Assembly (NCBI GenBank): GCA_041650895.1
Contig: JBAZKF010000002.1
Location: 152,425 to 170,272, forward strand
Length of the DNA: 17,848 nucleotides
Direction of reading: 5' to 3'
Source: Patescibacteria group bacterium
GTDB lineage: Bacteria; Patescibacteriota; Patescibacteriia; 2-01-FULL-39-33
The notes under the pieces were generated by a model. It had not been told where the DNA came from. It did not search any database and saw only the letters and a program-made list of their open reading frames with translations. How positions within the stretch are numbered: position 1 is the first letter of the stretch; every line of letters starts with the position of its first letter. Of the stretch, positions 6,189 through 17,848 are shown one piece after another. The translations under genes and the position numbers were made by a program.

Positions 6189-7766
6189 ATGCCTGTAAAA
6201 TCTAAAAAATCACAAAAAACAGAAATCGCTAAAAAAGTTCTTTTGCTCATATTAGACGGTTGGGGAATCGGCAAAGAAGACGGTTCCAATCCGATTTTTT
6301 TAGCTAAACCGAAGTTTATCAATTCTTTGTATAAGAAGTATCCCTGGACGGAATTATGCGCGTCCGGACTTTGCGTCGGTTTGCCGCCAGACCAGGTGGG
6401 AAACTCTGAAGCCGGCCACATGAACTTGGGAGCCGGACGCATTGCCGATCAGGACGTGATTAAGATTTCCAAACACATCGGTACTGGCGAATTTTTCAAG
6501 AACCCCGCTTTTTTGGCGGCTATTAATCACGCCAAAAAGAATAAAACCGCTTTGCATTTGATGGGTATGCTGTCTAACGGCCAGAGTCCCCACAGCGATC
6601 CTGATCATCTTTTGGCTTTACTGACCTTAGTGCGCAAGCATGAGTTAAAAAAAGTTTATTTGCATTTATTTACCGATGGTCGCGATTCACCGCCTATGTC
6701 GGCCTTGAAATCCATCATGGCTTTGGAGCGTTCGCTTAAACCCAATGAGATCATCTCTACGGTTATCGGTCGGTTTTACGCCATGGATCGCAAGAAAGTC
6801 TGGACCAGGACTATCGCGGCTTACAACGCCATGACCGACGGCCGGGATGCGCATTATGCTGACAGTCCTCAGGCCGGCATCGACCGCGCTTACAATGCTA
6901 ATATATCCGATGAATTCATCGAGCCTATTGTCATTAGGCAAAAAGGAAAAATGACGCCGCGTATCAGCGATAATGACGCCATTATTTTCTTTAATTTGCG
7001 CAGCGATCGCGCCAGGCAAATGGCCAAGCCGTTTGTCCAGCATCAATTTGAAGAAAAGAATCCAGGGTTTGTTAAGCGTAAACGAGTATTGCGTAATGTT
7101 TCCTTTGTGGCTATGACTGATTTCGGACCGGATTTGGATAGTATTCTGACCGCTTATCCTTCGGAAGATTTAAAAAACACCTTGCCTATAGTGTTGAAGA
7201 ACAAGAAGCAGATTTATATCGCCGAGAGCGAGAAATACGCTCATGTGACTTTCTTTTTTAATGGTGGTTATGCTGATCCGGTGGGCGGTGAAGAAAGAAT
7301 TAATATTCCTTCGCCTCATGTGGATAGATACGACAAGACGCCGGCTATGTCCACCAAAGGAATAACCAGCAGAATTATTGCTTCATTAAGAAAATACGAT
7401 TTTATCTGCGCCAACATCGCTTGTCCTGATATGATCGGCCACACCGGCAATATGGAAGCGGCGCAAGAAACAGTTAAGGCTGTTGATAAATACGTCAAGC
7501 AAATCGTGGCGGCCGCGCTTAAGAATGATGCCGTGTTGCTCATCACTGCCGATCATGGCAATATAGAATACAAACTCAATTTGGAAACAGGGGAGAGGTT
7601 GACCGAACATACCACTAACCCAGTGCCATTTATTGTTGTAGGTGGCAGTTTCGGCAAGTCGCTAAAATTAAAGCGCGATGGCGTTTTGGGTGATGTCGCC
7701 CCTACTGTTATTAAACTGTTCGGTTTAAATAAACCCAAGGGAATGAGTAAGAATAGCTTGATTTAA
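6189..7766 (+). CDS. gpmI: 2,3-bisphosphoglycerate-independent phosphoglycerate mutase (iPGM), paralog 1 (more diverged)
   Basis: LILDGWG, GNSEAGHMNLGAG (active-site Ser retained), DGRD, GRFYAMDR, FNLRSDRAR, EKYAHVTFFFNGG, DMIGHTGN and ITADHGN motifs. The GGVHSH region is altered to GQSPHS. Confidence 0.9.
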   Translation: MPVKSKKSQKTEIAKKVLLLILDGWGIGKEDGSNPIFLAKPKFINSLYKKYPWTELCASGLCVGLPPDQVGNSEAGHMNLGAGRIADQDVIKISKHIGTGEFFKNPAFLAAINHAKKNKTALHLMGMLSNGQSPHSDPDHLLALLTLVRKHELKKVYLHLFTDGRDSPPMSALKSIMALERSLKPNEIISTVIGRFYAMDRKKVWTRTIAAYNAMTDGRDAHYADSPQAGIDRAYNANISDEFIEPIVIRQKGKMTPRISDNDAIIFFNLRSDRARQMAKPFVQHQFEEKNPGFVKRKRVLRNVSFVAMTDFGPDLDSILTAYPSEDLKNTLPIVLKNKKQIYIAESEKYAHVTFFFNGGYADPVGGEERINIPSPHVDRYDKTPAMSTKGITSRIIASLRKYDFICANIACPDMIGHTGNMEAAQETVKAVDKYVKQIVAAALKNDAVLLITADHGNIEYKLNLETGERLTEHTTNPVPFIVVGGSFGKSLKLKRDGVLGDVAPTVIKLFGLNKPKGMSKNSLI

Positions 7767-7769
7767 ATT

Positions 7770-9362
7770 ATGACTGATAGCAAAAACAAACGACTTAAAC
7801 CGGTAATACTGATGATTTTGGATGGTTGGGGAGCGGCCCCGCCTTCAAGATCCAATGCCATTACTCTGGCCAAAACGCCGGGGGTGACAGGATTAATAAA
7901 AACTTATCCGGCTTTGACTTTACAGGCCTCGGGCGAAGCCGTGGGCTTGTCTTGGGGGGAAATTGGCAACTCTGAAGTCGGGCATCTTAATTTGGGCTCG
8001 GGCAAGCTGGTTTACCAGAATTTGCCGCGCATTAATAAATCCATTTCTGACGGCGCCTTTTTTGAGAATGAAAAGTTTATCAATGCCATAAAACACGCTA
8101 AGAAAAACAAAGGCAAAGTTCATTTGCTGGGGTTGATTTCTTCGGGCGGCGTGCACAGCCATATTGATCATTTATTCGCTTTGTTGGAGCTGTGTCAGAA
8201 AGAAAAATTCCGCGAGGTATATATTCATGGCGTTTTGGACGGCCGTGACATGCCCTATAATTCCGGCATTGATTTTGTGGAAAAAATAAAAAACAAATCC
8301 GAGGAATTGGGTGTCGGCCGCATTGCCACTCTGTCCGGCCGGTTTTATGCTATGGATCGCGACAATCATTGGGAGCGCATCGTTCTGGCTTATAACGCCA
8401 TGGTCAAAGGTGAAGCCACGGAAAGATTCAGTGATCCGAGCGAGGCGGTCAGCGCTTCTTACGATAAAAAGATCTATGATGAGGAATTTGTGCCGGTAGT
8501 GATCGAAGATGGCGGCCGGCCTGTGGCCACCATCGCCCCCGGCGATGCCGTGATATTTTTTAATTTTCGCGCGGATCGCGCTCGAGAGATTTCCAAAGCG
8601 TTCGTTTTGCCCGGTTTTGAAAAGTTTGAACGGCAATATTTGAAAGATTTATATTTCGTGGCTATGACCGAATACGAGAAGGATGTCCCGATGGAAGTCG
8701 CTTTTCCTCCTGAAACCATTAAAGATCCGTTGGCTAAGGTTATAGCCGATGCCGGCCTAACTCAATTGCATATCGCGGAGACGGAGAAATACGCCCACGT
8801 CACTTTTTTCTTTAATGGCGGTACCGAGCAGGAATTTACCGGTGAAGACAGGGTGTTGGTGCCGTCGCCACGCGTGTCTTCTTATGCGGAGAAGCCGGAA
8901 ATGTCAGCCAAGGAAGTGACGCAGAAAACCATCGACGCTATTATGGCTGATAAGTATGATTTTATTGTGTTGAATTTTGCCAATTGTGATATGGTCGGCC
9001 ATACTGGAGACTTAAAAGCCACAATCAAAGCCGTGGAAGCAGTGGACAGTTGCGTCAAAAAAATCACAGAAGTGGTTTTGGCCAAAGGCGGAGCGGCCTT
9101 AATTACCGCTGATCATGGCAATGCCGAGGAGTTGCTCAATTTACAATCAGGCGAAATAGACAAGGAACACAGCACTTATCCGGTACCGCTTATTATCGTC
9201 GGCAAGGAATGGGAGGGTAAGAACGCCGGTTTTCCGGAAGTGCCTGGCGGTGATCTATCTTTGGTTCAGCCGGCTGGCATACTGTCCGATGTGGCACCGA
9301 CGATTATCAAGATTATGGGGCTCGAACAGCCGGCGGAAATGACCGGTAAACCGTTGATTTAA
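7770..9362 (+). CDS. gpmI: 2,3-bisphosphoglycerate-independent phosphoglycerate mutase (iPGM), paralog 2 (canonical)
   Basis: ILDGWG, GNSEVGHLNLGSG, SSGGVHSHIDHL, DGRD, GRFYAMDRD, FNFRADRARE, EKYAHVTFFFNGG, DMVGHTGD and ITADHGN. Starts 3 nt after paralog 1. Confidence 0.9.
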   Translation: MTDSKNKRLKPVILMILDGWGAAPPSRSNAITLAKTPGVTGLIKTYPALTLQASGEAVGLSWGEIGNSEVGHLNLGSGKLVYQNLPRINKSISDGAFFENEKFINAIKHAKKNKGKVHLLGLISSGGVHSHIDHLFALLELCQKEKFREVYIHGVLDGRDMPYNSGIDFVEKIKNKSEELGVGRIATLSGRFYAMDRDNHWERIVLAYNAMVKGEATERFSDPSEAVSASYDKKIYDEEFVPVVIEDGGRPVATIAPGDAVIFFNFRADRAREISKAFVLPGFEKFERQYLKDLYFVAMTEYEKDVPMEVAFPPETIKDPLAKVIADAGLTQLHIAETEKYAHVTFFFNGGTEQEFTGEDRVLVPSPRVSSYAEKPEMSAKEVTQKTIDAIMADKYDFIVLNFANCDMVGHTGDLKATIKAVEAVDSCVKKITEVVLAKGGAALITADHGNAEELLNLQSGEIDKEHSTYPVPLIIVGKEWEGKNAGFPEVPGGDLSLVQPAGILSDVAPTIIKIMGLEQPAEMTGKPLI

Positions 9363-11799: not shown

Positions 11800-13035
11800 A
11801 TGCGATTTACCGAAACTGTAAAATTATCATTTTCTGTTTTGCGCACCAATCGGACGCGCAGTTTTTTGACTTCGCTGGGGATTATTATCGGCATTGCCGC
11901 TGTCATCGTGATTATTTCTGCCGGTGCCGGTGCGCAATCGCTCATCGTTAATCAATTCAATGCTATTGGCACCAATTTGATTGGCATTCTGCCCGGTGCC
12001 AGCGACGAGAACGGCCCGCCTGCTTCGGCTTTTGGCATTATTCTACAGACGCTTAAATATGAAGACGCTCAGGCTATTGTGCAAATAGTATCGCATGTTA
12101 CTGCTGTCTCCTCTTATAATACCGGCGTAGCTACGGCGTCTTACCAGAGTTCCAAAACAGATATCACTTATTACGGTGTTATGCCTGACTATCTACTGGT
12201 TGAGGAAACGGAAGTGGAGAAGGGGAGATTTTTCGGCGATGACGAGGATCGGGGAAGCTCCAAAGTTGCCGTGTTGGGCTGGCAGGTGGCGCAGGATCTG
12301 TTCGACGGTCAGGAAGCTGTCGGCCGCAAGATGAAAATCGGCAAAGAATCTTTTGAAGTGATCGGGGTGATGCGTAAACGCGGCGTCTCCGGTTTTCAAA
12401 ATAACGATAGTATTATTCTGATTCCGGCACAGACCGCGCAAAAGATAATGCTGGGCGTACGCCATGTTAATTTTATTCGCGCCAAAGTGGATCAGCAAGA
12501 GAATTTGTCGCAAGTAGTGGAGGATATTCGCTTTTTGTTGCGTGATCGCCATAACTTATTAGAATCAAAGGTTGACGATTTCAATATCCGCAACACGGCC
12601 GACGCTATTAAGACGCTGACTTCCATTACTGACGTGCTGAAGTTTTTTTTGGCCGCAATCGCCAGTATTTCTTTGTTAGTCGGCGGTGTGGGCGTAATGA
12701 ACATTATGTTGGCCTCGGTTAATGAGCGTGTCCGCGAAATCGGCTTGCGCAAAGCTGTCGGCGCCAAGTCCAATGATATTATGGTTCAGTTTTTGGCCGA
12801 GTCGGTTACTGTTACTTTAGCCGGAGGCGTTATTGGCATTATTATCGGTTCGTTGATTTCCGCCTTAGTCGCCGTAGTTGCCAAATATTTGGGTTATGAT
12901 TGGGATTTAGTAGTTTCTCCGCTGTCAATATTCATGGGTTTTGGCGTAGCTTTTATTGTCGGTTTAATTTTTGGCATTTACCCGGCTCAGCGTGCGGCCA
13001 AACTCAACTCCATTGAGGCGCTAAGATGGGAGTAA
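11800..13035 (+). CDS. ABC transporter permease, FtsX/MacB family (YknZ-like)
   Basis: N-terminal TM helix, a large extracytoplasmic domain, then three C-terminal TM helices with the FtsX-like core. Its start is 1 nt after the ATPase stop. Confidence 0.85.
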   Translation: MRFTETVKLSFSVLRTNRTRSFLTSLGIIIGIAAVIVIISAGAGAQSLIVNQFNAIGTNLIGILPGASDENGPPASAFGIILQTLKYEDAQAIVQIVSHVTAVSSYNTGVATASYQSSKTDITYYGVMPDYLLVEETEVEKGRFFGDDEDRGSSKVAVLGWQVAQDLFDGQEAVGRKMKIGKESFEVIGVMRKRGVSGFQNNDSIILIPAQTAQKIMLGVRHVNFIRAKVDQQENLSQVVEDIRFLLRDRHNLLESKVDDFNIRNTADAIKTLTSITDVLKFFLAAIASISLLVGGVGVMNIMLASVNERVREIGLRKAVGAKSNDIMVQFLAESVTVTLAGGVIGIIIGSLISALVAVVAKYLGYDWDLVVSPLSIFMGFGVAFIVGLIFGIYPAQRAAKLNSIEALRWE

Positions 13036-13077
13036 TAAGTTTTATTATTAGTCATTAATTATTAATTATTAGTTAAC

Positions 13078-13108
13078 AAATCGCTTATTTTGGGGCGATT
13101 TTTTTATT
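13078..13108 (+). terminator. Rho-independent terminator after the efflux operon
   Basis: Stem AAATCGC / GCGATTT with a 10-nt loop, followed by a run of 8 or more T. Confidence 0.5.
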
Positions 13109-13168
13109 TTATTTTGTCTAATTTTAGTCATTTATTTATAATTAAATCAAAAATAGGGGATAAAACAC

Positions 13169-13197
13169 TTGACAAAATATTTAAGGTGTGATATAAT
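13169..13197 (+). promoter_or_regulatory. near-consensus sigma70 promoter with extended -10 (TTGACA-17-TGaTATAAT)
   Basis: TTGACA at 13169-13174, a 17-nt spacer, TGATATAAT at 13189-13197. Predicted start site about 13204. It drives the GC-rich island. Confidence 0.65.
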
Positions 13198-13203
13198 AGT
13201 TTA

Positions 13204-13870
13204 TTCAAGATAGTGGTTGTGGATAACTGAACAAAATTCAATTATTGACAATATTATCTTGTGGCAGCTTAAAAGCTGTTTTAAGAGAACCTTCGGGTTC
13301 TTTGTCAGGGCGTCAGGCGGCTTATGTCGTGTGTCGCCCTTGACAAAGGTTCCGAATAATGGAACTCTGAATGTTAATTAAAAAAATATTCGCGGCAGCT
13401 TGTCGCCGCGTCGATATGATTAAGGCGTATGCTTGTCCGCCTAAATCCGATCCAAGGTCTAAAGCCGAGGATCTTAGGAGGAGATTAAGCTGAAGAGGGG
13501 GCCTGGCTTGAAATTATATATTCGCCAATCGCCTTAATTCACTTCTTCAAGTCTTGATTATATCGATGCGGTAGCAATGTCTGGCCGTCTAAGCAGGCGG
13601 GCAAACGCGCGCTGCAAGTACTTTCGAAGGAAGATTTTCCCCACCGCGTCGGGCTTTTATCCCGCCGGATCGGTAGACCTCCTCCTTTCCCCGGGGAGGC
13701 GTTATGTAGCGATACATGCGCCTCCCCCACACGCCTCAGACAGTATGGTTCGAGAGCATATAATCAAATCCTCACAAAGGAAGCTTGGTTTTACGCTTAC
13801 GGCCGGGGTACTGTTTGAGGCGTGTGTTGCAAAAAAGCATTTTTCATTTTACGTTACGAGTAATCTCGTG
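13204..13870 (+). ncRNA. candidate large structured non-coding RNA / structured 5' leader (class unknown), GC-rich
   Basis: No ORF with a plausible translation start. Many GC-rich helices are readable directly: GAACC-UUCG-GGUUC (UUCG tetraloop); CTTTGTCAGGGCG...CGCCCTTGACAAAG long-range helix; CGCGGC...GCCGCG; GGGGAGGCG-[AUGUA-GCGA-UACAU]-CGCCUCCCC (nested GNRA hairpin); CACACGCCTCA...TGAGGCGTGTG (an 11-bp helix enclosing about 65 nt). By eye the GC content is roughly 55-60%, against about 40-45% in the flanking genes. Confidence 0.4.
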
Positions 13871-13880
13871 AAGGAGGCCT

Positions 13881-14078
13881 ATGATAGTACAATGTTGCGT
13901 TTGTCGTAGGGTGCGTTTGTCTGGCGTGTCTGGCGTCTCTTGGGCGGAGCAAGCCATACCACCCGGTGAGGATGTTTCCCATGGCTACTGCCCGGAATGC
14001 GCCGCAAAAGCGTATGAGGGCATGGAGAGGGAATTGACCAACCGGCACCAAAGGAGCCCGACTGATGGCAAAGGGTAA
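13881..14078 (+). CDS. small 4-Cys zinc-ribbon protein (65 aa), paralog 1
   Basis: AAGGAGG sits 3-4 nt upstream of the ATG. Pattern CxxC-x12-W-x15-YCPEC-x4-AY. Low-complexity repeats occur in the N-terminal part, which lowers confidence. Confidence 0.45.
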   Translation: MIVQCCVCRRVRLSGVSGVSWAEQAIPPGEDVSHGYCPECAAKAYEGMERELTNRHQRSPTDGKG

Positions 14079-14253
14079 GTGCCCGGCTTGTTTTAAAATC
14101 GAAGTGGCGCCGGGGCAGTGGAAAAACACCGCCTTACCGGTCAAAGAAGAAACATTGCCCAAATACTGTCCGAGATGTAGCGAGCATAACGCTTATGTCC
14201 GGGAGAGCATTCGGGTATCCAAGGAGTTGGCGGGCGGCGCGTCGGGAAAATAG
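14065..14253 (+). CDS. small 4-Cys zinc-ribbon protein (62 aa), paralog 2, translationally coupled to paralog 1
   Basis: AAGGAG sits 8 nt upstream of the ATG. The start overlaps the end of paralog 1 (ATGGCAAAGGGTAA). Pattern CPAC-x9-W-x15-YCPRC-x4-AY has the same W-to-YCPxC spacing as paralog 1. Confidence 0.5.
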   Translation: MAKGKCPACFKIEVAPGQWKNTALPVKEETLPKYCPRCSEHNAYVRESIRVSKELAGGASGK

Positions 14254-14265
14254 AACATTCTGTTA

Positions 14266-14303
14266 GGAGGAAGCCGCGCGGCTTCCTCCTTTAAAATTGA
14301 TTT
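14266..14303 (+). terminator. strong GC-rich Rho-independent terminator ending the GC-rich island
   Basis: AGGAGGAAGCCGC|GCGGCTTCCTCCT is a perfect 13-nt inverted repeat (14266-14291), followed by TTTAAAATTGATTTTGATTT. Confidence 0.65.
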
Positions 14304-14412
14304 TGATTTATCCACAGCCAAGCTCTTGACACTGTATTGTTTTTATAAAAATTTAATATATAATTTTATATTAAGGGATGACATTAAGCATCAGGCATTT
14401 TCAATCGCACTT

Positions 14413-14450
14413 TCCTAAAAATTTTTTTAGGATCACACTCAAGTGTGATT
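14413..14450. repeat. two adjacent hairpins: AT-palindrome TCCTAAAAA-TT-TTTTTAGGA and ATCACAC-TCAA-GTGTGAT
   Basis: Read directly from the sequence. A GC terminator follows. Confidence 0.6.
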
Positions 14451-14476
14451 TCGAAAATTCCCGTTGCGTCTTCTCC

Positions 14477-14510
14477 GAGTCCCGCCCATGTGGCGGGACT
14501 TTTAATTGGC
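14477..14510 (+). terminator. Rho-independent terminator (GAGTCCCGCC-loop-GGCGGGACTT + TTTT)
   Basis: 8-10 bp GC stem 14477-14500 followed by TTTTAATTGG. Together with the two upstream hairpins this may define a short structured transcript. Confidence 0.55.
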
Positions 14511-14535
14511 TGATTTTGTTAATTGGTGTTATAAT
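14506..14535 (+). promoter_or_regulatory. putative promoter with extended -10 (TGTTATAAT) for the small membrane protein gene
   Basis: TGTTATAAT at 14527-14535, weak -35 TTGGCT at 14506-14511, ATG at 14557. Confidence 0.4.
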
Positions 14536-14556: not shown

Positions 14557-14934
14557 ATGTCACTCAAACAACTAATTATCATCGTCAGTATCGCCACTCT
14601 ACTTTGCTGGGCCAGTTGGTTGCTAGTTATCTTTGAAGTGGATCCGACAACCGCCGGCTTTTACGGCCTACTGATTTTTTATGCCAGCATGTTTTTGTCT
14701 TTGCTTGGTTTGTTTTTCCTGATCAGTTTCGGCTTTCGCAAATTATTCAATAAGCTGGAAATGGAATACAAGCTGGTGGGCATGTCTTTCCGCCAATCAT
14801 TTTTCTTCTCCTTGGCCGTCGTGGGATTCTTTTTCCTGCAGAGCAAGGATTTATTGACTTGGTGGAACAGCATTTTGCTGGTTTTGGCTCTGGTGATTTT
14901 GGAATTTTTCTTTTTGAGTTATCGGAAGAAATAG
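14557..14934 (+). CDS. small integral membrane protein (125 aa, about 4 TM helices), unknown function
   Basis: Four hydrophobic segments. Bracketed by its own promoter and a strong terminator. No recognisable motif. I checked for CrcB-like sequence and found none. Confidence 0.55.
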   Translation: MSLKQLIIIVSIATLLCWASWLLVIFEVDPTTAGFYGLLIFYASMFLSLLGLFFLISFGFRKLFNKLEMEYKLVGMSFRQSFFFSLAVVGFFFLQSKDLLTWWNSILLVLALVILEFFFLSYRKK

Positions 14935-14944
14935 TATAGCGTTA

Positions 14945-14975
14945 GCCGTCCCGTTGGTCGGGGCGGTTTTTTTAT
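14945..14975 (+). terminator. Rho-independent terminator (GCCGTCCCG-TTGGT-CGGGGCGG + TTTTTTT)
   Basis: 8-bp GC stem, 5-nt loop, 7-T run immediately downstream of the stop at 14934. Confidence 0.7.
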
Positions 14976-15157: not shown

Positions 15158-16216
15158 ATGAAAGAAAAACTCAGCCAATTAAAGGCGCAATTCACCGAGG
15201 AATCGGCAAAGGTCAAATCAGCTTCCGAGCTGGAAGAATTGGAGAATAGATTTTTGAGCCGTAAAAGTGGATTGCTGACCGGCATCATGAAGGGGATCAA
15301 AGATGTGGCTAAAGAAGAGGTGGCGGAAATCGGCGCCTTGGCTAATGAAACCAAAGATTATATTGTTGAGGGACTGGAAACACTTAAGGGAAACTTGGGC
15401 GGTATCGGTTCCTCTAATTTCGATTTTACCGTACCCGGCCGCAAGCCGGCTGTCGGCCATTTGCATTTAGCCACCATTGCCATTCGCGAGATTGAAAGTA
15501 TCCTAGAGCCGTTAGGCTTCGTCAGGACGCGCCATCCGGATGTAGAATGGGATTATTATGCTTTTGAAACTTTGAACATGCCCGGCGATCATCCGGCTCG
15601 CGATGACTGGGAAACCTTTTTTATTGATGATTCTCCGATCAAGATGAATTTGCCGGCTAATTCAAAGAAATTAGTCAAAGAGGGGAGACGATTACTAACT
15701 CCTCATACTTCTAGCATTCAGGTACGGGAAATGGAGAGGGGCGTTCTGCCGATTCGGATGATGAATATTTCCAAATGCTATCGTCGGCAGATTGATGTTT
15801 CTCATGTGCCGATGTTCCATCAATTTGAGGGGCTAGTGATTGACAAGGGGATTAATATTACTCACTTGAAGGGCACGATTGATTATTTTGTTAAGAAATT
15901 TTTCGGCGAGGATCGCACAATTCGTTTGCGGCCGCATCATTTTCAATTCACTGAGCCGAGTTTTGAAGTGGATATTTCCTGCGGACTCTGCCATGGCGCA
16001 GGTTGCAAGATGTGTAAAGAGGGTTGGTTGGAGCTGGCTGGCGCCGGCATGGTTCATCCAAATGTGCTTAAAGCCGGCGGCATTGATCCGGAGAAGTATT
16101 CGGGTTTTGCTTTCGGCTGGGGTGTCGAGCGATGCTATTCCATGAAGTCGGACCTGAATATTGATGATTTAAGGTTGATGTATAAGAATGATTTGAGGTT
16201 TAATGAGCAGTTTTAG
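15158..16216 (+). CDS. pheS: phenylalanine--tRNA ligase alpha subunit
   Basis: Class II aaRS motifs: PHHFQFTEPSFEVD, the Cys cluster ISCGLCHGAGCKMCKEGW (as in Bacillus PheS), GWLELAGAGMVHPNVL, SGFAFGWGVERCYSM, DLRLMYKNDLRF. No pheT follows within the window. Confidence 0.95.
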   Translation: MKEKLSQLKAQFTEESAKVKSASELEELENRFLSRKSGLLTGIMKGIKDVAKEEVAEIGALANETKDYIVEGLETLKGNLGGIGSSNFDFTVPGRKPAVGHLHLATIAIREIESILEPLGFVRTRHPDVEWDYYAFETLNMPGDHPARDDWETFFIDDSPIKMNLPANSKKLVKEGRRLLTPHTSSIQVREMERGVLPIRMMNISKCYRRQIDVSHVPMFHQFEGLVIDKGINITHLKGTIDYFVKKFFGEDRTIRLRPHHFQFTEPSFEVDISCGLCHGAGCKMCKEGWLELAGAGMVHPNVLKAGGIDPEKYSGFAFGWGVERCYSMKSDLNIDDLRLMYKNDLRFNEQF

Positions 16217-16230
16217 AGATTATATATTAT

Positions 16231-16533
16231 ATGACAGAATATAAGTTAGAAGCAGAATCTGCAAGATTTGATTTAAAAGGTAATCCCGTCGATCTCTCTA
16301 CTATTAGAGGTGAGGTGACAATTAACTTCTTTTTCGTTGTATATAATATTTTTTTTACATTATTAATTGCTATTATTGGTGTTATACCGATACATTTGCT
16401 GTGTTGGCAATTGAAAATATTATTATTTATTATTGTGTTAATTGGGTTATTTTTTTGTTTTCGTATAGTATATTTTAGGAAATTTTTAACAAAAATAAGA
16501 TCTACTATATTTAGTTTTAAAGAGAGGTTGTAA
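16231..16533 (+). CDS. hypothetical small membrane protein (100 aa), AT-rich
   Basis: Two to three hydrophobic helices. Strongly AT-rich codon usage, unlike the upstream genes. Confidence 0.4.
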   Translation: MTEYKLEAESARFDLKGNPVDLSTIRGEVTINFFFVVYNIFFTLLIAIIGVIPIHLLCWQLKILLFIIVLIGLFFCFRIVYFRKFLTKIRSTIFSFKERL

Positions 16534-16541
16534 TCATTTTA

Positions 16542-16606
16542 GTATTACTTTTCTAGAAAAGTAATACAAAAGTCGCGACCGGAAAAAATCATGGCTGGAT
16601 TTTACG
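16542..16606. repeat. repeated intergenic element, copy 2: 26-bp perfect palindrome GTATTACTTTTCTAGAAAAGTAATAC + AGTCGCGA + hairpin AAAATC-ATGGCTG-GATTTT
   Basis: Palindrome at 16542-16567, AGTCGCGA at 16571-16578, hairpin at 16585-16603. A further TTTTCTAG lies at 16647-16654 inside the inverted repeat TTGCAG...CTGCAA. Confidence 0.7.
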
Positions 16607-16706
16607 CTCCACTCCTGAAAATTTCCTGACGCTTCGCTTGCAGAAATTTTCTAGTCGTTCCTGCAAAAAATCGCACAATATTTTTTAATGGTCGCAATAG
16701 CAATGT

Positions 16707-17219
16707 ATGCCAAATATAAAACCTAAATCACAAATAGAAGTTGATCAGAATATCTTAGATTTTTTAAATGGAATGCACATTGATAAGCCCGAAGATTTGG
16801 TAACCTTAAAGAATAAGATAATTAAATCCCTTGAATTCCGATCATATAATAATAAAACAAAAAAGCATGCTGATAGTATCCAATGGAAAAGAACTGCTTC
16901 TGAGATCTTGTCAGATGGTTATGTTTATAAAGGAAAGGCGTGCTCTGATTTGGCGGTAGTTTTCCTTGCTCTATGTAAGGCAACCGGGATTAATGGCCGC
17001 TTGGTTAAATTAAAATCAATAGATAACGAACATACTCACTCGATTGTTGAGGTTAAATTAAAGAGGGCTTGGTATAGAATTGATCCATCAAGTAGAGATT
17101 CCTTGCCATTTAAAGGTGAGTTATCAAGTAAATCAATTTGGAATAAAAAGTTTAAAGTTTGGCGGAAAGGAAAAGATGTCTGGGATTTAGGCCTTAAAGA
17201 TATAAAATCAGAATTATGA
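16707..17219 (+). CDS. transglutaminase-like cysteine-protease superfamily protein
   Basis: Candidate catalytic triad in the canonical order and spacing: GKACSDLAVVFLALCKATGI (Cys), HTHSIVEV (His), WYRIDPS (Asp). Confidence 0.65.
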   Translation: MPNIKPKSQIEVDQNILDFLNGMHIDKPEDLVTLKNKIIKSLEFRSYNNKTKKHADSIQWKRTASEILSDGYVYKGKACSDLAVVFLALCKATGINGRLVKLKSIDNEHTHSIVEVKLKRAWYRIDPSSRDSLPFKGELSSKSIWNKKFKVWRKGKDVWDLGLKDIKSEL

Positions 17220-17641
17220 TAAATAAAATTTGGAAAAAAATTTATAATATTTTCACAAATGTACCAGTCTATCTAAAATTGGCAATTATTCCGATTTTAT
17301 TTTACTTAATTTTATTTGTATCTTTTGTCCTATTGTCTCTTATAGGATTTATAGCACAAAGGTTTGAAATTTTTGGAGCTTTTCTTAGTATTATAGCGCT
17401 TCCCATAATTATAATTATGTTTGTTTTCGAATTCTTTACTCTACTTACTGTTAGTATTTTATCACTATTTATTCCGAACAATATTATAAAAGAAATGACT
17501 ACTCCAGCTATTTTTGGCGGTGATATTTCGAATAACTTTGGTGTTTTTGCGTCATTAGTATTTTGGGTTATTATTGGATTTTTTGTCGGCTTAATAATAT
17601 TTTTTAAAAAGCGTTATTTTAATAATAATAAAATTAATTAA
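17216..17641 (+). CDS. hypothetical integral membrane protein (141 aa), AT-rich
   Basis: Start overlaps the previous stop (ATGA). Three to four TM helices. Very AT-rich. Confidence 0.5.
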   Translation: MINKIWKKIYNIFTNVPVYLKLAIIPILFYLILFVSFVLLSLIGFIAQRFEIFGAFLSIIALPIIIIMFVFEFFTLLTVSILSLFIPNNIIKEMTTPAIFGGDISNNFGVFASLVFWVIIGFFVGLIIFFKKRYFNNNKIN

Positions 17642-17706
17642 CTATTATATTATTAATGATTTATGAACCTAAATATCTCTTACAACTGGCTAAAGTCGCT
17701 CGCCCG

Positions 17707-17834
17707 TTGTCATTCCGACCGGAGCGAAGCGTAGTGGAGGAATCCCTTTTGACAGTAAAAACCCATTAAAATAGTTTATTTAGAGTTAAAAGCGATCCCT
17801 CCACTCGGCCTTGAGGCCTCGGTCGGGATGACAA
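17707..17834. repeat. GC-rich 130-nt imperfect inverted repeat / long hairpin with internal GGCC-TTGA-GGCC mini-hairpin and about 45-nt AT-rich apical region
   Basis: TTGTCATTCCGACCG (17707-17721) pairs with CGGTCGGGATGACAA (17820-17834). AGTGGAGGAATCCC (17733-17746) pairs with GCGATCCCTCCACT (17792-17805). The interior contains TTGACA-17-TAGTTT. Confidence 0.6.
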
Positions 17835-17848
17835 AATGGTTTAATGAC

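Follow-up and report, generated by a model that had tools for sequence, protein, structure and literature searches.

The window analysed here is a stretch of 17,848 nucleotides (nt) from a 315-kb metagenome contig (JBAZKF010000002.1) of the Patescibacteria, or Candidate Phyla Radiation (CPR). Its genes all lie on the + strand, in the order glycolytic genes, two iPGM paralogues, a HlyD–ABC–MacB exporter, an RNA unit, a gene for a protein of 125 amino acids (aa), which we call p125, and pheS. The RNA unit, which is the subject of this work, comprises a promoter, a structured RNA of ∼630 nt in which three conserved domains (d1, d2 and d3) are joined by hypervariable linkers, two small zinc-ribbon open reading frames (ORF1 and ORF2) and a terminator (Table 1). 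An earlier description made from the letters alone, which we call the sequence-only reading, took it for an unclassified large structured non-coding RNA in a self-contained transcription unit. That view is upheld by the lack of any match in Rfam, by the lack of a tRNA or tmRNA and by covariation in all three domains, and we regard it as highly probable that the RNA defines a genuine new family of structured non-coding RNA.

Table 1. Features of the RNA unit, in coordinates of the window
Feature	Position	Strand	Description
σ70 promoter	13169..13197	+	−35 TTGACA 13169–13174, 17-nt spacer, −10 TATAAT 13192–13197; TG-n-TATAAT from 13189
RNA domain d1	13204..13366	+	nhmmer matches; alignments A5 and A9
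d1 5′ hairpin	13206–13261		variable
DnaA-box-like site 1	13215..13226	-	GGTTGTGGATAA; core 13218–13226 is the reverse complement of the consensus TTATCCACA
d1 small hairpin	13264–13279
d1 hairpin H2	13286–13301		UUCG hairpin
d1 hairpin H3	13301–13348		long, 26 bp; invariant GGCG/CGCC core
d1 hairpin H4	13348–13366
RNA domain d2	13402..13575	+	most widely conserved part; three-way junction closed by P1
d2 P1	13402–13426 with 13551–13575		helix of 25–30 bp
d2 P2	13432–13490		near-invariant GGCGUAUGCUUGUC pairs with conserved AGGAGG
d2 P3	13491–13549		conserved A/U-rich loop
Linker d2–d3	13576..13727	+	variable, GC-rich; 9-bp hairpin GGGGAGGCG...CGCCUCCCC at ∼13693–13727
RNA domain d3	13728..13826	+	long bulged hairpin, 17-bp outer stem 13728–13745 with 13809–13826, then U-rich tail
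Small hairpin and ORF1 Shine–Dalgarno sequence	13856–13869; 13871–13877	+	ACGAG-UAAU-CUCGU, then AAGGAGG; kept in L007 and L008
ORF1	13881..14078	+	65 aa, predicted 4-Cys zinc ribbon, MxVQCCxCxKxR...W...[DE][IV]SHGYCPxC
ORF2	14065..14253	+	62 aa, predicted second 4-Cys zinc ribbon; Shine–Dalgarno sequence AAGGAG 14051–14056
Intrinsic terminator	14265..14302	+	palindrome 14265–14290, perfect 13+13, AGGAGGAAGCCGC/GCGGCTTCCTCCT, then interrupted T-tract
DnaA-box-like site 2	14308..14316	+	TTATCCACA, inverted relative to site 1

The unit opens with a promoter that matches the consensus at 12 of 12 positions and also carries the TG of an extended −10 element. It is the sole perfect site in the region in a consensus scan, and by our own arithmetic 17.8 kb of sequence should contain ∼0.002 such sites by chance. 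All 14 aligned homologues share the −35 hexamer unchanged, the extended −10 element is nearly invariant among them, and TTGACAA(A/G) stands at the equivalent position in most of the 22 homologous loci described below. Transcription would start at ∼13204. At the other end of the unit, the U-tract of the terminator is broken (TTTAAAATTGATTTT) and the consensus terminator scan therefore did not list it; an equivalent hairpin is present in L007 (individual loci are referred to by such L numbers). The textbook promoter and the 13-bp perfect terminator hairpin of the sequence-only reading were both found as described, and the predicted pair of overlapping 4-Cys mini-ORFs was borne out by their cysteines, their Shine–Dalgarno (SD) sequences and their pattern of substitution. 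Its picture of a GC-rich island held in part: the GC content of the unit (0.51–0.53) contrasts clearly with that of the AT-rich spacers on either side (0.31–0.39), but barely exceeds that of the highest neighbouring coding windows (0.44–0.52), so that the contrast was somewhat overstated. A higher GC content would be expected for a helix-rich RNA. A promoter-like site at 13737–13764, inside d3, is not conserved and was treated as a chance match because L012 and L024 have another sequence in place of its TATAAT.

An inverted repeat has the invariant −35 region, TTGACAAAAT (13164–13179), as one of its arms and a conserved upstream motif, ATTTTGTCTAA (13110–13125), ∼46 bp away, as the other. The upstream arm doubles as a weaker promoter match (TTGTCT-17-TATAAT, 13114–13142), and the repeat may mark an additional regulator site or promoters in tandem.

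Homologues were sought with two scans, one anchored on PheS over species-representative genomes and the other using a degenerate pattern of the most conserved RNA stretch over metagenomes, and the results were screened with nhmmer and with two covariance models, R1 for d3 and R2 for d2 (trimmed alignment). The RNA was found at 22 distinct loci, namely the window and 21 other genomes resembling Candidatus (Ca.) Buchananbacteria. Its orientation is identical in all 22, and it always lies upstream of a separate small-RNA gene (‘down’), p125 and pheS; the other flank varies, being occupied by the MacB exporter or by a gene of ∼1,000 aa. One Ca. Buchananbacteria metagenome-assembled genome (MAG) with a 64%-identical ORF1 homologue has a locus collinear with the window, and an identical copy of ORF1 is present in an NCBI MAG. 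The RNA can still be detected where PheS identity drops to ∼64%, and its divergence is in step with that of PheS. At the pheS locus, some Buchananbacteria (L016, L017, L025, L074 and L079) lack it, as do all of the non-Buchananbacteria Patescibacteria sampled. Because the RNA keeps the same syntenic site down to 64% PheS identity and diverges in step with PheS, we conclude that it has been inherited vertically within one lineage, with some losses, and was not acquired by recent horizontal transfer. The sequence-only suggestion of a horizontally acquired module is not supported by the same observations.

Folding calculations indicate a highly structured RNA. The + strand of 13204–13880 (677 nt) has a minimum free energy (MFE) of −291.4 kcal/mol, against −201.6 ± 6.6 kcal/mol for shuffles (z = −13.7), and the fold of the complementary (−) strand is poorer by 50 kcal/mol. 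When 15 homologues were folded independently by MFE, each gave the d2 architecture, in which GGCGUAUGCUUGUC makes up the junction and also supplies the 5′ strand of P2. Covariance model R2 detects d2 at 22 loci; in the window it scores 158 bits on the + strand and has no match at E ≤ 1 on the − strand, and on the − strand of other loci it scores 16–33 bits. Model R1 detects d3 in 11 genomes, which are the closer relatives. The scores of both models depend on the strand.

Covariation was tested in up to 18 genomes, with shuffled sequences and slid pairing partners as controls. In d1, where the UUCG loop (13292–13295) tops an H2 stem that covaries, 18 of the 26 pairs of H2 and H3 are compensatory and 91.4% of cells are paired, compared with 47–52% in the slid controls. 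Helix P1 of d2 is 94% paired across 14 sequences with seven compensatory pairs; for P3 the figure is 85%, and six of its eight pairs are compensatory; for d2 overall, 16 of 44 pairs are compensatory and 81% of cells are paired (35–46% when slid). In the long hairpin of d3, compensatory changes affect 14 of 33 pairs, and pairing reaches 95.3%, against 32–42% in the slid controls. Not one of 500 shuffles equalled the observed pairing in d1 H2 and H3, in d2 or in d3, a comparison in which the relatedness of the sequences inflates significance; the slid-partner controls are fairer and are also clear. The two long-range helices proposed in the sequence-only reading are thereby confirmed as P1 and the d3 stem, and the compensatory changes that it had suggested looking for in homologous loci are numerous in d1, d2 and d3.

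Two other roles for conserved elements of d2 were considered and rejected. The conserved AGGAGG could be taken for the ribosome-binding site of a hidden ORF, but it is paired in P2, and this SD-like sequence is therefore sequestered; by our own reading, no conserved start codon follows it. A GGCG...CGCC hairpin extension is possible in some sequences as an alternative to P1, but covariation favours P1.

Around its domains the RNA varies widely, and the span from promoter to d3 ranges from <500 nt in L011 to ∼1,750 nt in L010. The d2–d3 linker is conserved in the closest relatives only (73–86% identity, alignment A2). Elsewhere it is replaced by unrelated small ORFs, three in L010 and one in L024, and it is missing altogether in L012. 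In L011 the tail of d3 is a run of seven U residues, and d3 forms the terminator of an RNA that has no ORF. The tip of one d1 hairpin is a site of expansion: at H4, L008 (5768–6045) and L010 (4660–4960) share a homologous structured insertion of ∼300 nt that matched no Rfam family. An additional domain, closed by UAGAGGAGGG/CCAUCCUCUA (for example, L021:6420–6620), lies between d1 and d2 in the six genomes that are more distant (L015, L018 and L020–L023). It holds a hairpin, CAGGUCACAAAUAUU...GGGCCG, and because this resembles the P3 hairpin of d2, an internal duplication is suggested.

The RNA domains are better conserved than the genes around them. Nucleotide identity to L007 and L008 is 90% and 90% for d2 and 92% and 91% for d3, compared with 81–86% for the ABC ATPase, MacB, p125 and PheS genes. 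The mini-ORFs are the least conserved part, at 73% and 68% for ORF1 and 64% and 76% for ORF2. The structure of the RNA and many of its nucleotides are under stronger purifying selection than neighbouring housekeeping genes. The two ORFs that can be drawn within the RNA, at 13217–13381 (54 aa) and 13577–13909 (110 aa), have no codon-position bias and differ from L007 and L008 by insertions and deletions that are not multiples of three, in agreement with the earlier statement that the structured stretch carries no credible ORF. A degraded protein-coding gene, or a GC-rich spacer kept by chance, would have only these mechanically drawn ORFs in its favour. A Pfam search with the 110-aa ORF gave no match, and with nucleotide conservation above that of real genes and abundant covariation this explanation is effectively refuted.

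The RNA could not be assigned to a described class. Rfam 15, which covers OLE, GOLLD, ROOL, HEARO, raiA, RNase P, SRP, 6S, group I and II introns, riboswitches and T-box elements, gave no match in the window at the gathering threshold. At permissive E-values, positions 13000–14500 gave only snoRNA and miRNA noise (≤24 bits, against thresholds of 50–195), and scans of 16 homologous loci in compact and expanded forms, including L010 and L008, gave no match. The Rfam covariance-model search proposed in the sequence-only reading has thus been run, and no family was matched in the window or in the homologous loci. ARAGORN found no tRNA or tmRNA in the window. A group II intron is superficially similar in having a 5′ structured block, a variable ORF-bearing linker and a conserved 3′ hairpin, but we rejected it: there is no match to Intron_gpII or to the D1–D4 models and no reverse transcriptase, and the RNA begins at its own promoter. 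The 1.15-kb unit had no blastn match in phage, plasmid or viral collections, and the RNA pattern was not found in viral contigs. We found no description of it in the literature on large non-coding RNAs in Patescibacteria or Buchananbacteria.

Both ends of the unit carry a DnaA-box-like site. The two (GGYTGTGGATAA) are the only perfect DnaA-box 9-mers in the window, where our own arithmetic gives an expectation of ∼0.14, and a few one-mismatch sites occur elsewhere. Site 1 lies at approximately +14 to +22 of the transcript and begins 48–49 nt past the start of the −35 element in 10 genomes, and site 2 begins 17–18 nt ahead of the −35 element of the ‘down’ gene (at 14326 in the window, 18 nt). 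At least 10 related genomes also have the inverted pair, at fixed distances from the promoters. The 275 kb of the 22 homologous loci hold 27 perfect boxes, against 2.1 expected (∼13-fold), and 24 of them lie at or beside the two fixed positions; three more distant RNA homologues (L018, L020 and L023) have no perfect box. The strand of the 5′ hairpin that pairs with the site 1 box is not conserved, and the constraint therefore acts on the box itself. In the window, an imperfect inverted repeat of 27 nt (I1; 13205–13231 and 14303–14329, complementary at 21 of 27 positions) has the two sites as its cores; of this repeat, only the 9–12-nt box and TCAAGA, which is also the −35 element of the next promoter, are conserved between genomes. 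We regard the boxes as putative operator sites, most simply for DnaA.

The two mini-ORFs overlap by 14 nt, and each has AAGGAG(G) upstream and four cysteines arranged as CxxC...CPxC. Their similarity to one another is weak (29% over 38 aa, pairwise E = 3e-5) and is consistent with an old paralogy. Third-position substitutions are in excess in both, ORF2 differing from that of L008 by 6, 8 and 23 changes at the three codon positions, and this excess marks them as real but fast-evolving genes. The gene caller of the source contig skipped both, and an exact look-up returned no called-gene record for either. A profile of the ORF1 family detects at least 2,197 cluster representatives with a cut-off of E ≤ 1e-3, and 165 with one of E ≤ 1e-10. 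Most of these proteins stand alone at 50–90 aa, some lie C-terminal to PAS domains, and the cysteines, the tryptophan and SHGYCPEC are invariant (alignment A7). A hidden Markov model search of Pfam and NCBIfam assigned ORF1 to no family; its AF2 model (pLDDT 77.5) has four β-strands and one helix, and a structure search of the PDB returned nothing at E < 1. ORF1 belongs to a large, uncharacterised family of predicted zinc ribbons with the signature CxxC...SHGxCPxC.

An ORF1 homologue lies 3′ of the RNA in 14 of the 22 genomes, and a zinc-ribbon ORF in the position of ORF2 in only five (the window, L007, L008, L012 and L091). Approximately six genomes (L010, L011, L014, L019, L084/L093 and L097) have the RNA without any zinc-ribbon ORF, and in L010, L011 and L019 a terminator is visible after it. 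In the converse direction, d2 and d3 are absent from the five loci of the ORF1 family checked outside the lineage. Since there are genomes with the RNA and no ORF, and the ORF1 family occurs elsewhere with no RNA, the zinc-ribbon ORFs are not the cause of the conservation of the RNA and are either optional co-transcribed passengers or clade-specific partners. A ribonucleoprotein (RNP) of the RNA with the zinc-ribbon proteins, as proposed in the sequence-only reading, is possible; the 14 genomes with ORF1 after the RNA speak for it, and the ORF-less genomes, the restriction of ORF2 to five and the occurrence of the family away from the RNA count against it.

Some neighbourhoods of the ORF1 family lie outside the RNA lineage. 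In two unrelated GC-rich contigs a family gene is convergent with a chaperonin gene, groEL by our own sequence reading in L005 (513–1484, − strand) and groES–groEL by Pfam in L110 (4331–6321), and in L006 a family gene lies among genes for the small stress proteins CsbD, entericidin and DUF3309, beside a two-component system. Because of these chaperonin and stress-protein neighbours, there are hints of a stress-related role for the protein family. Three genomes have ORF1 joined to an additional C-terminal domain of ∼100 aa (L012:5846–6295 and, at the equivalent position, L091 and L108) with the motif PELxxSGFxLKFENGMxIG...LLLAAPP, for which there was no family assignment. The same domain occurs as a free-standing small ORF between d2 and d3 in L010 (5193–5516).

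Taken together, the comparisons show a modular unit, independent, strongly promoted and constitutive-looking, in which the promoter at 13169 starts a transcript that has the folded RNA itself as its functional product and the cargo is dispensable. We propose in addition that domain d3 with its U-rich tail would act as a leaky terminator, giving a stable RNA of ∼630 nt together with a longer read-through mRNA for the mini-ORFs that would end at the 14265–14290 hairpin. The RNA would act in trans as a structured scaffold, RNP component or oligomer, in the manner of OLE, raiA, ROOL and GOLLD, and the co-transcribed zinc-ribbon protein or proteins would be its most obvious candidate partner. A protein, most simply DnaA, binding the site at +14 to +22 might gate transcription, with the inverted second site lying at the ‘down’ promoter. 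Stated in full, with this mechanism, a new lineage-restricted large structured non-coding RNA gene of Ca. Buchananbacteria-type Patescibacteria is the account towards which we lean. A more specific form of it, in which the RNA would work by itself as a machine or scaffold, perhaps as a homo-oligomer or in an RNP with the zinc-ribbon or the four-transmembrane protein, and its synthesis, like that of the ‘down’ RNA, would be coupled to DnaA through the inverted sites, is tentative and, in our estimation, rather unlikely.

Several observations weigh against this account. We infer, from the sequences, the 5′ and 3′ ends of the transcript, the stability of the RNA and the read-through at d3, and the protein that would bind the TTATCCACA sites is assumed to be DnaA from the consensus alone. 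Domain d3 is missing from the six more distant genomes that carry the additional domain. In other phyla the ORF1 family does without this RNA, and in L020, L021 and L022 ORF1 begins just 19–43 nt past the 3′ strand of d2 P1, in a leader-like layout. The effect of relatedness on the shuffle controls, noted above, belongs on the same side.

The main rival is suggested by this last layout. It holds that the RNA is a giant cis-acting 5′ leader of the zinc-ribbon mRNA, placed before ORF1, where it would govern translation or termination by autoregulatory protein binding or by sensing a ligand or temperature. In addition to the spacing in L020–L022, ORF1 homologues follow the RNA over deep divergence, the SD-like AGGAGG of d2 is sequestered, and the U-rich tail of d3 is attenuator-like. 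Protein-binding leaders, including those of ribosomal-protein mRNAs, likewise place structured RNA directly before a gene for a small (zinc-ribbon) protein of nucleic-acid-binding type, with an SD-like sequence in a helix, but they measure 50–150 nt, whereas the RNA here measures 400–1,700 nt, persists without the ORF and is better conserved than it. The ORF-less genomes retain the promoter, d1 and d2 (and, in two, d3), with a terminator in three, and unrelated small ORFs take up the position between d2 and d3 in L010 and L024. Moreover, P1 is far too stable to switch, and no conserved anti-terminator or anti-SD alternative of the riboswitch type was found. A leader would also have to be much better conserved than the genes it regulates, in a protein family that does elsewhere without such a leader. 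We therefore consider the cis-leader improbable.

Two further explanations give the DNA the leading role. If the functional entity were a DnaA-binding locus, either a datA- or DARS-like element for titration or reactivation or an origin-proximal region, the structure of the RNA would be secondary; the rarity of perfect boxes in the window, the fixed promoter-relative positions of all but three of the 27, and the AT-rich spacers flanking the unit would fit. The compensatory changes in ∼48 pairs instead reveal selection on RNA pairing rather than on DNA sequence, the boxes number only two and lie 1.1 kb from each other, and the three homologues noted above lack a perfect one. We do not take the locus for an origin, because the cumulative GC skew climbs monotonically with no switch and all called genes of the 21-kb locus are on the + strand with no change of orientation, and we regard this explanation as very unlikely. 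Less likely still is a mobile or invertible segment, a horizontally acquired RNA–protein cassette with 27-nt terminal inverted repeats. Repeat I1 does bracket the RNA, the ORFs and the terminator exactly, and the internal cargo varies among genomes, but outside the box and TCAAGA the arms do not covary between genomes, and the promoter lies outside the repeat. With one copy, one syntenic site and one orientation in 22 of 22 genomes, no transposase or invertase nearby, and no recombinase gene in the 10 kb flanking each side, we do not take the boxes for transposon ends; the lack of matches in phage, plasmid and viral collections points the same way.

Among known RNAs, OLE (Rfam RF01071) is similar in its size of ∼600 nt, its confinement to one lineage, its combination of invariant nucleotides with covarying helices and its lack of an obvious catalytic or regulatory role. 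OLE RNA is encoded beside the gene for OapA, a small membrane protein with four transmembrane segments, and here too a large RNA lies near a gene for a predicted four-transmembrane protein, p125, a parallel in layout. The present RNA differs in that it does not match the OLE model, and neither embedded ORFs nor DnaA-type boxes are features of OLE; in addition, p125 has its own promoter and terminator, is separated from the RNA by the ‘down’ gene and is present in genomes that lack the RNA. The RNA resembles ROOL, GOLLD and raiA in being large and narrowly distributed, with a covariation-supported multi-domain fold, variable peripheral helices and no known function. It differs in matching none of their covariance models, in not being tied to phages or tRNA clusters, and in being chromosomal and strictly syntenic with protein-coding cargo on its transcript. 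ROOL, GOLLD and OLE form RNA homo-oligomers (PMC12286853), and by analogy homo-oligomer formation is a possible mode of action for this RNA.

The dual-function RNAs RNAIII/hld of Staphylococcus aureus, SgrS/SgrT and SR1/SR1P of Bacillus subtilis are also structured RNAs that encode small proteins. These are base-pairing regulators of 200–500 nt with a single short ORF, in contrast to an RNA whose structured part, of ∼630 nt, contains three-way junctions and helices of 25 bp, and in which the ORFs are dispensable and vary in identity. Promoters with DnaA boxes, such as those of dnaA and mioC in Escherichia coli and the clusters of B. subtilis, provide a precedent for a perfect 9-mer at a roadblock position past the start and for a second box just ahead of a −35 element. 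The sites described here differ in being candidates known by sequence, in having non-coding RNAs as products and in forming an inverted pair 1.1 kb apart.

Bacterial structured RNAs longer than 500 nt with no known function are rare, and OLE, GOLLD, ROOL, raiA and HEARO have each opened new biology. CPR genomes are tiny and seldom retain 1 kb of non-coding DNA without reason. We know of no such large structured RNA described for the CPR, and as far as we find this is the first of its class for these bacteria. If the more specific, DnaA-coupled form of our account is correct, the RNA would provide an RNA-based, cell-cycle-linked function in bacteria that have very few transcription factors. The comparative set at hand, 22 genomes with three covariance-supported domains and natural variants that are minimal (L011) or expanded (L010), makes the RNA directly usable for structure determination and biochemistry, and the DnaA-type sites and the optional zinc-ribbon cargo offer two testable handles on its function.

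The ‘down’ gene (14326–14512) lies directly past the RNA unit and has its own TTGACA and TATAAT elements. Its RNA is predicted to form a rod-like hairpin of ∼125 nt, with a closing stem AGGGAAGG/CCUUCUCU and inner stems that covary, followed by a terminator, GUCCCGCCC-AUGU-GGCGGGAC, and a run of U residues. The gene is kept in at least 14 genomes, including L016 and L074, which both lack the large RNA. Searches of Rfam with it returned only weak Trp-leader and small-RNA noise, and the gene may encode either a 6S-like RNA that has diverged or a small RNA of a new kind. Pairing of its RNA with the conserved GCUUGUC motif of the large RNA amounts, by our own reading, to 6–7 bp in the window and is not conserved, and we rejected it.

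The p125 gene (14557–14934) encodes a predicted four-helix membrane protein that matched no family in Pfam or NCBIfam. A TGnTATAAT promoter of its own precedes it, leaving almost no leader, and a separate terminator follows at 14944–14968. The gene adjoins pheS even where the RNA is absent (L016, L074, L025 and L079).

Elsewhere in the window, the two iPGM genes are tandem paralogues (6189–7766 and 7770–9362), each with iPGM_N and Metalloenzyme domains, an arrangement that is unusual in a reduced genome. Past pheS, at 16200–17848, the GC content falls sharply to 0.25–0.35. This segment carries three small ORFs, one of which encodes a transglutaminase-core protein, and may represent an insert between pheS and pheT that is foreign or evolves fast.

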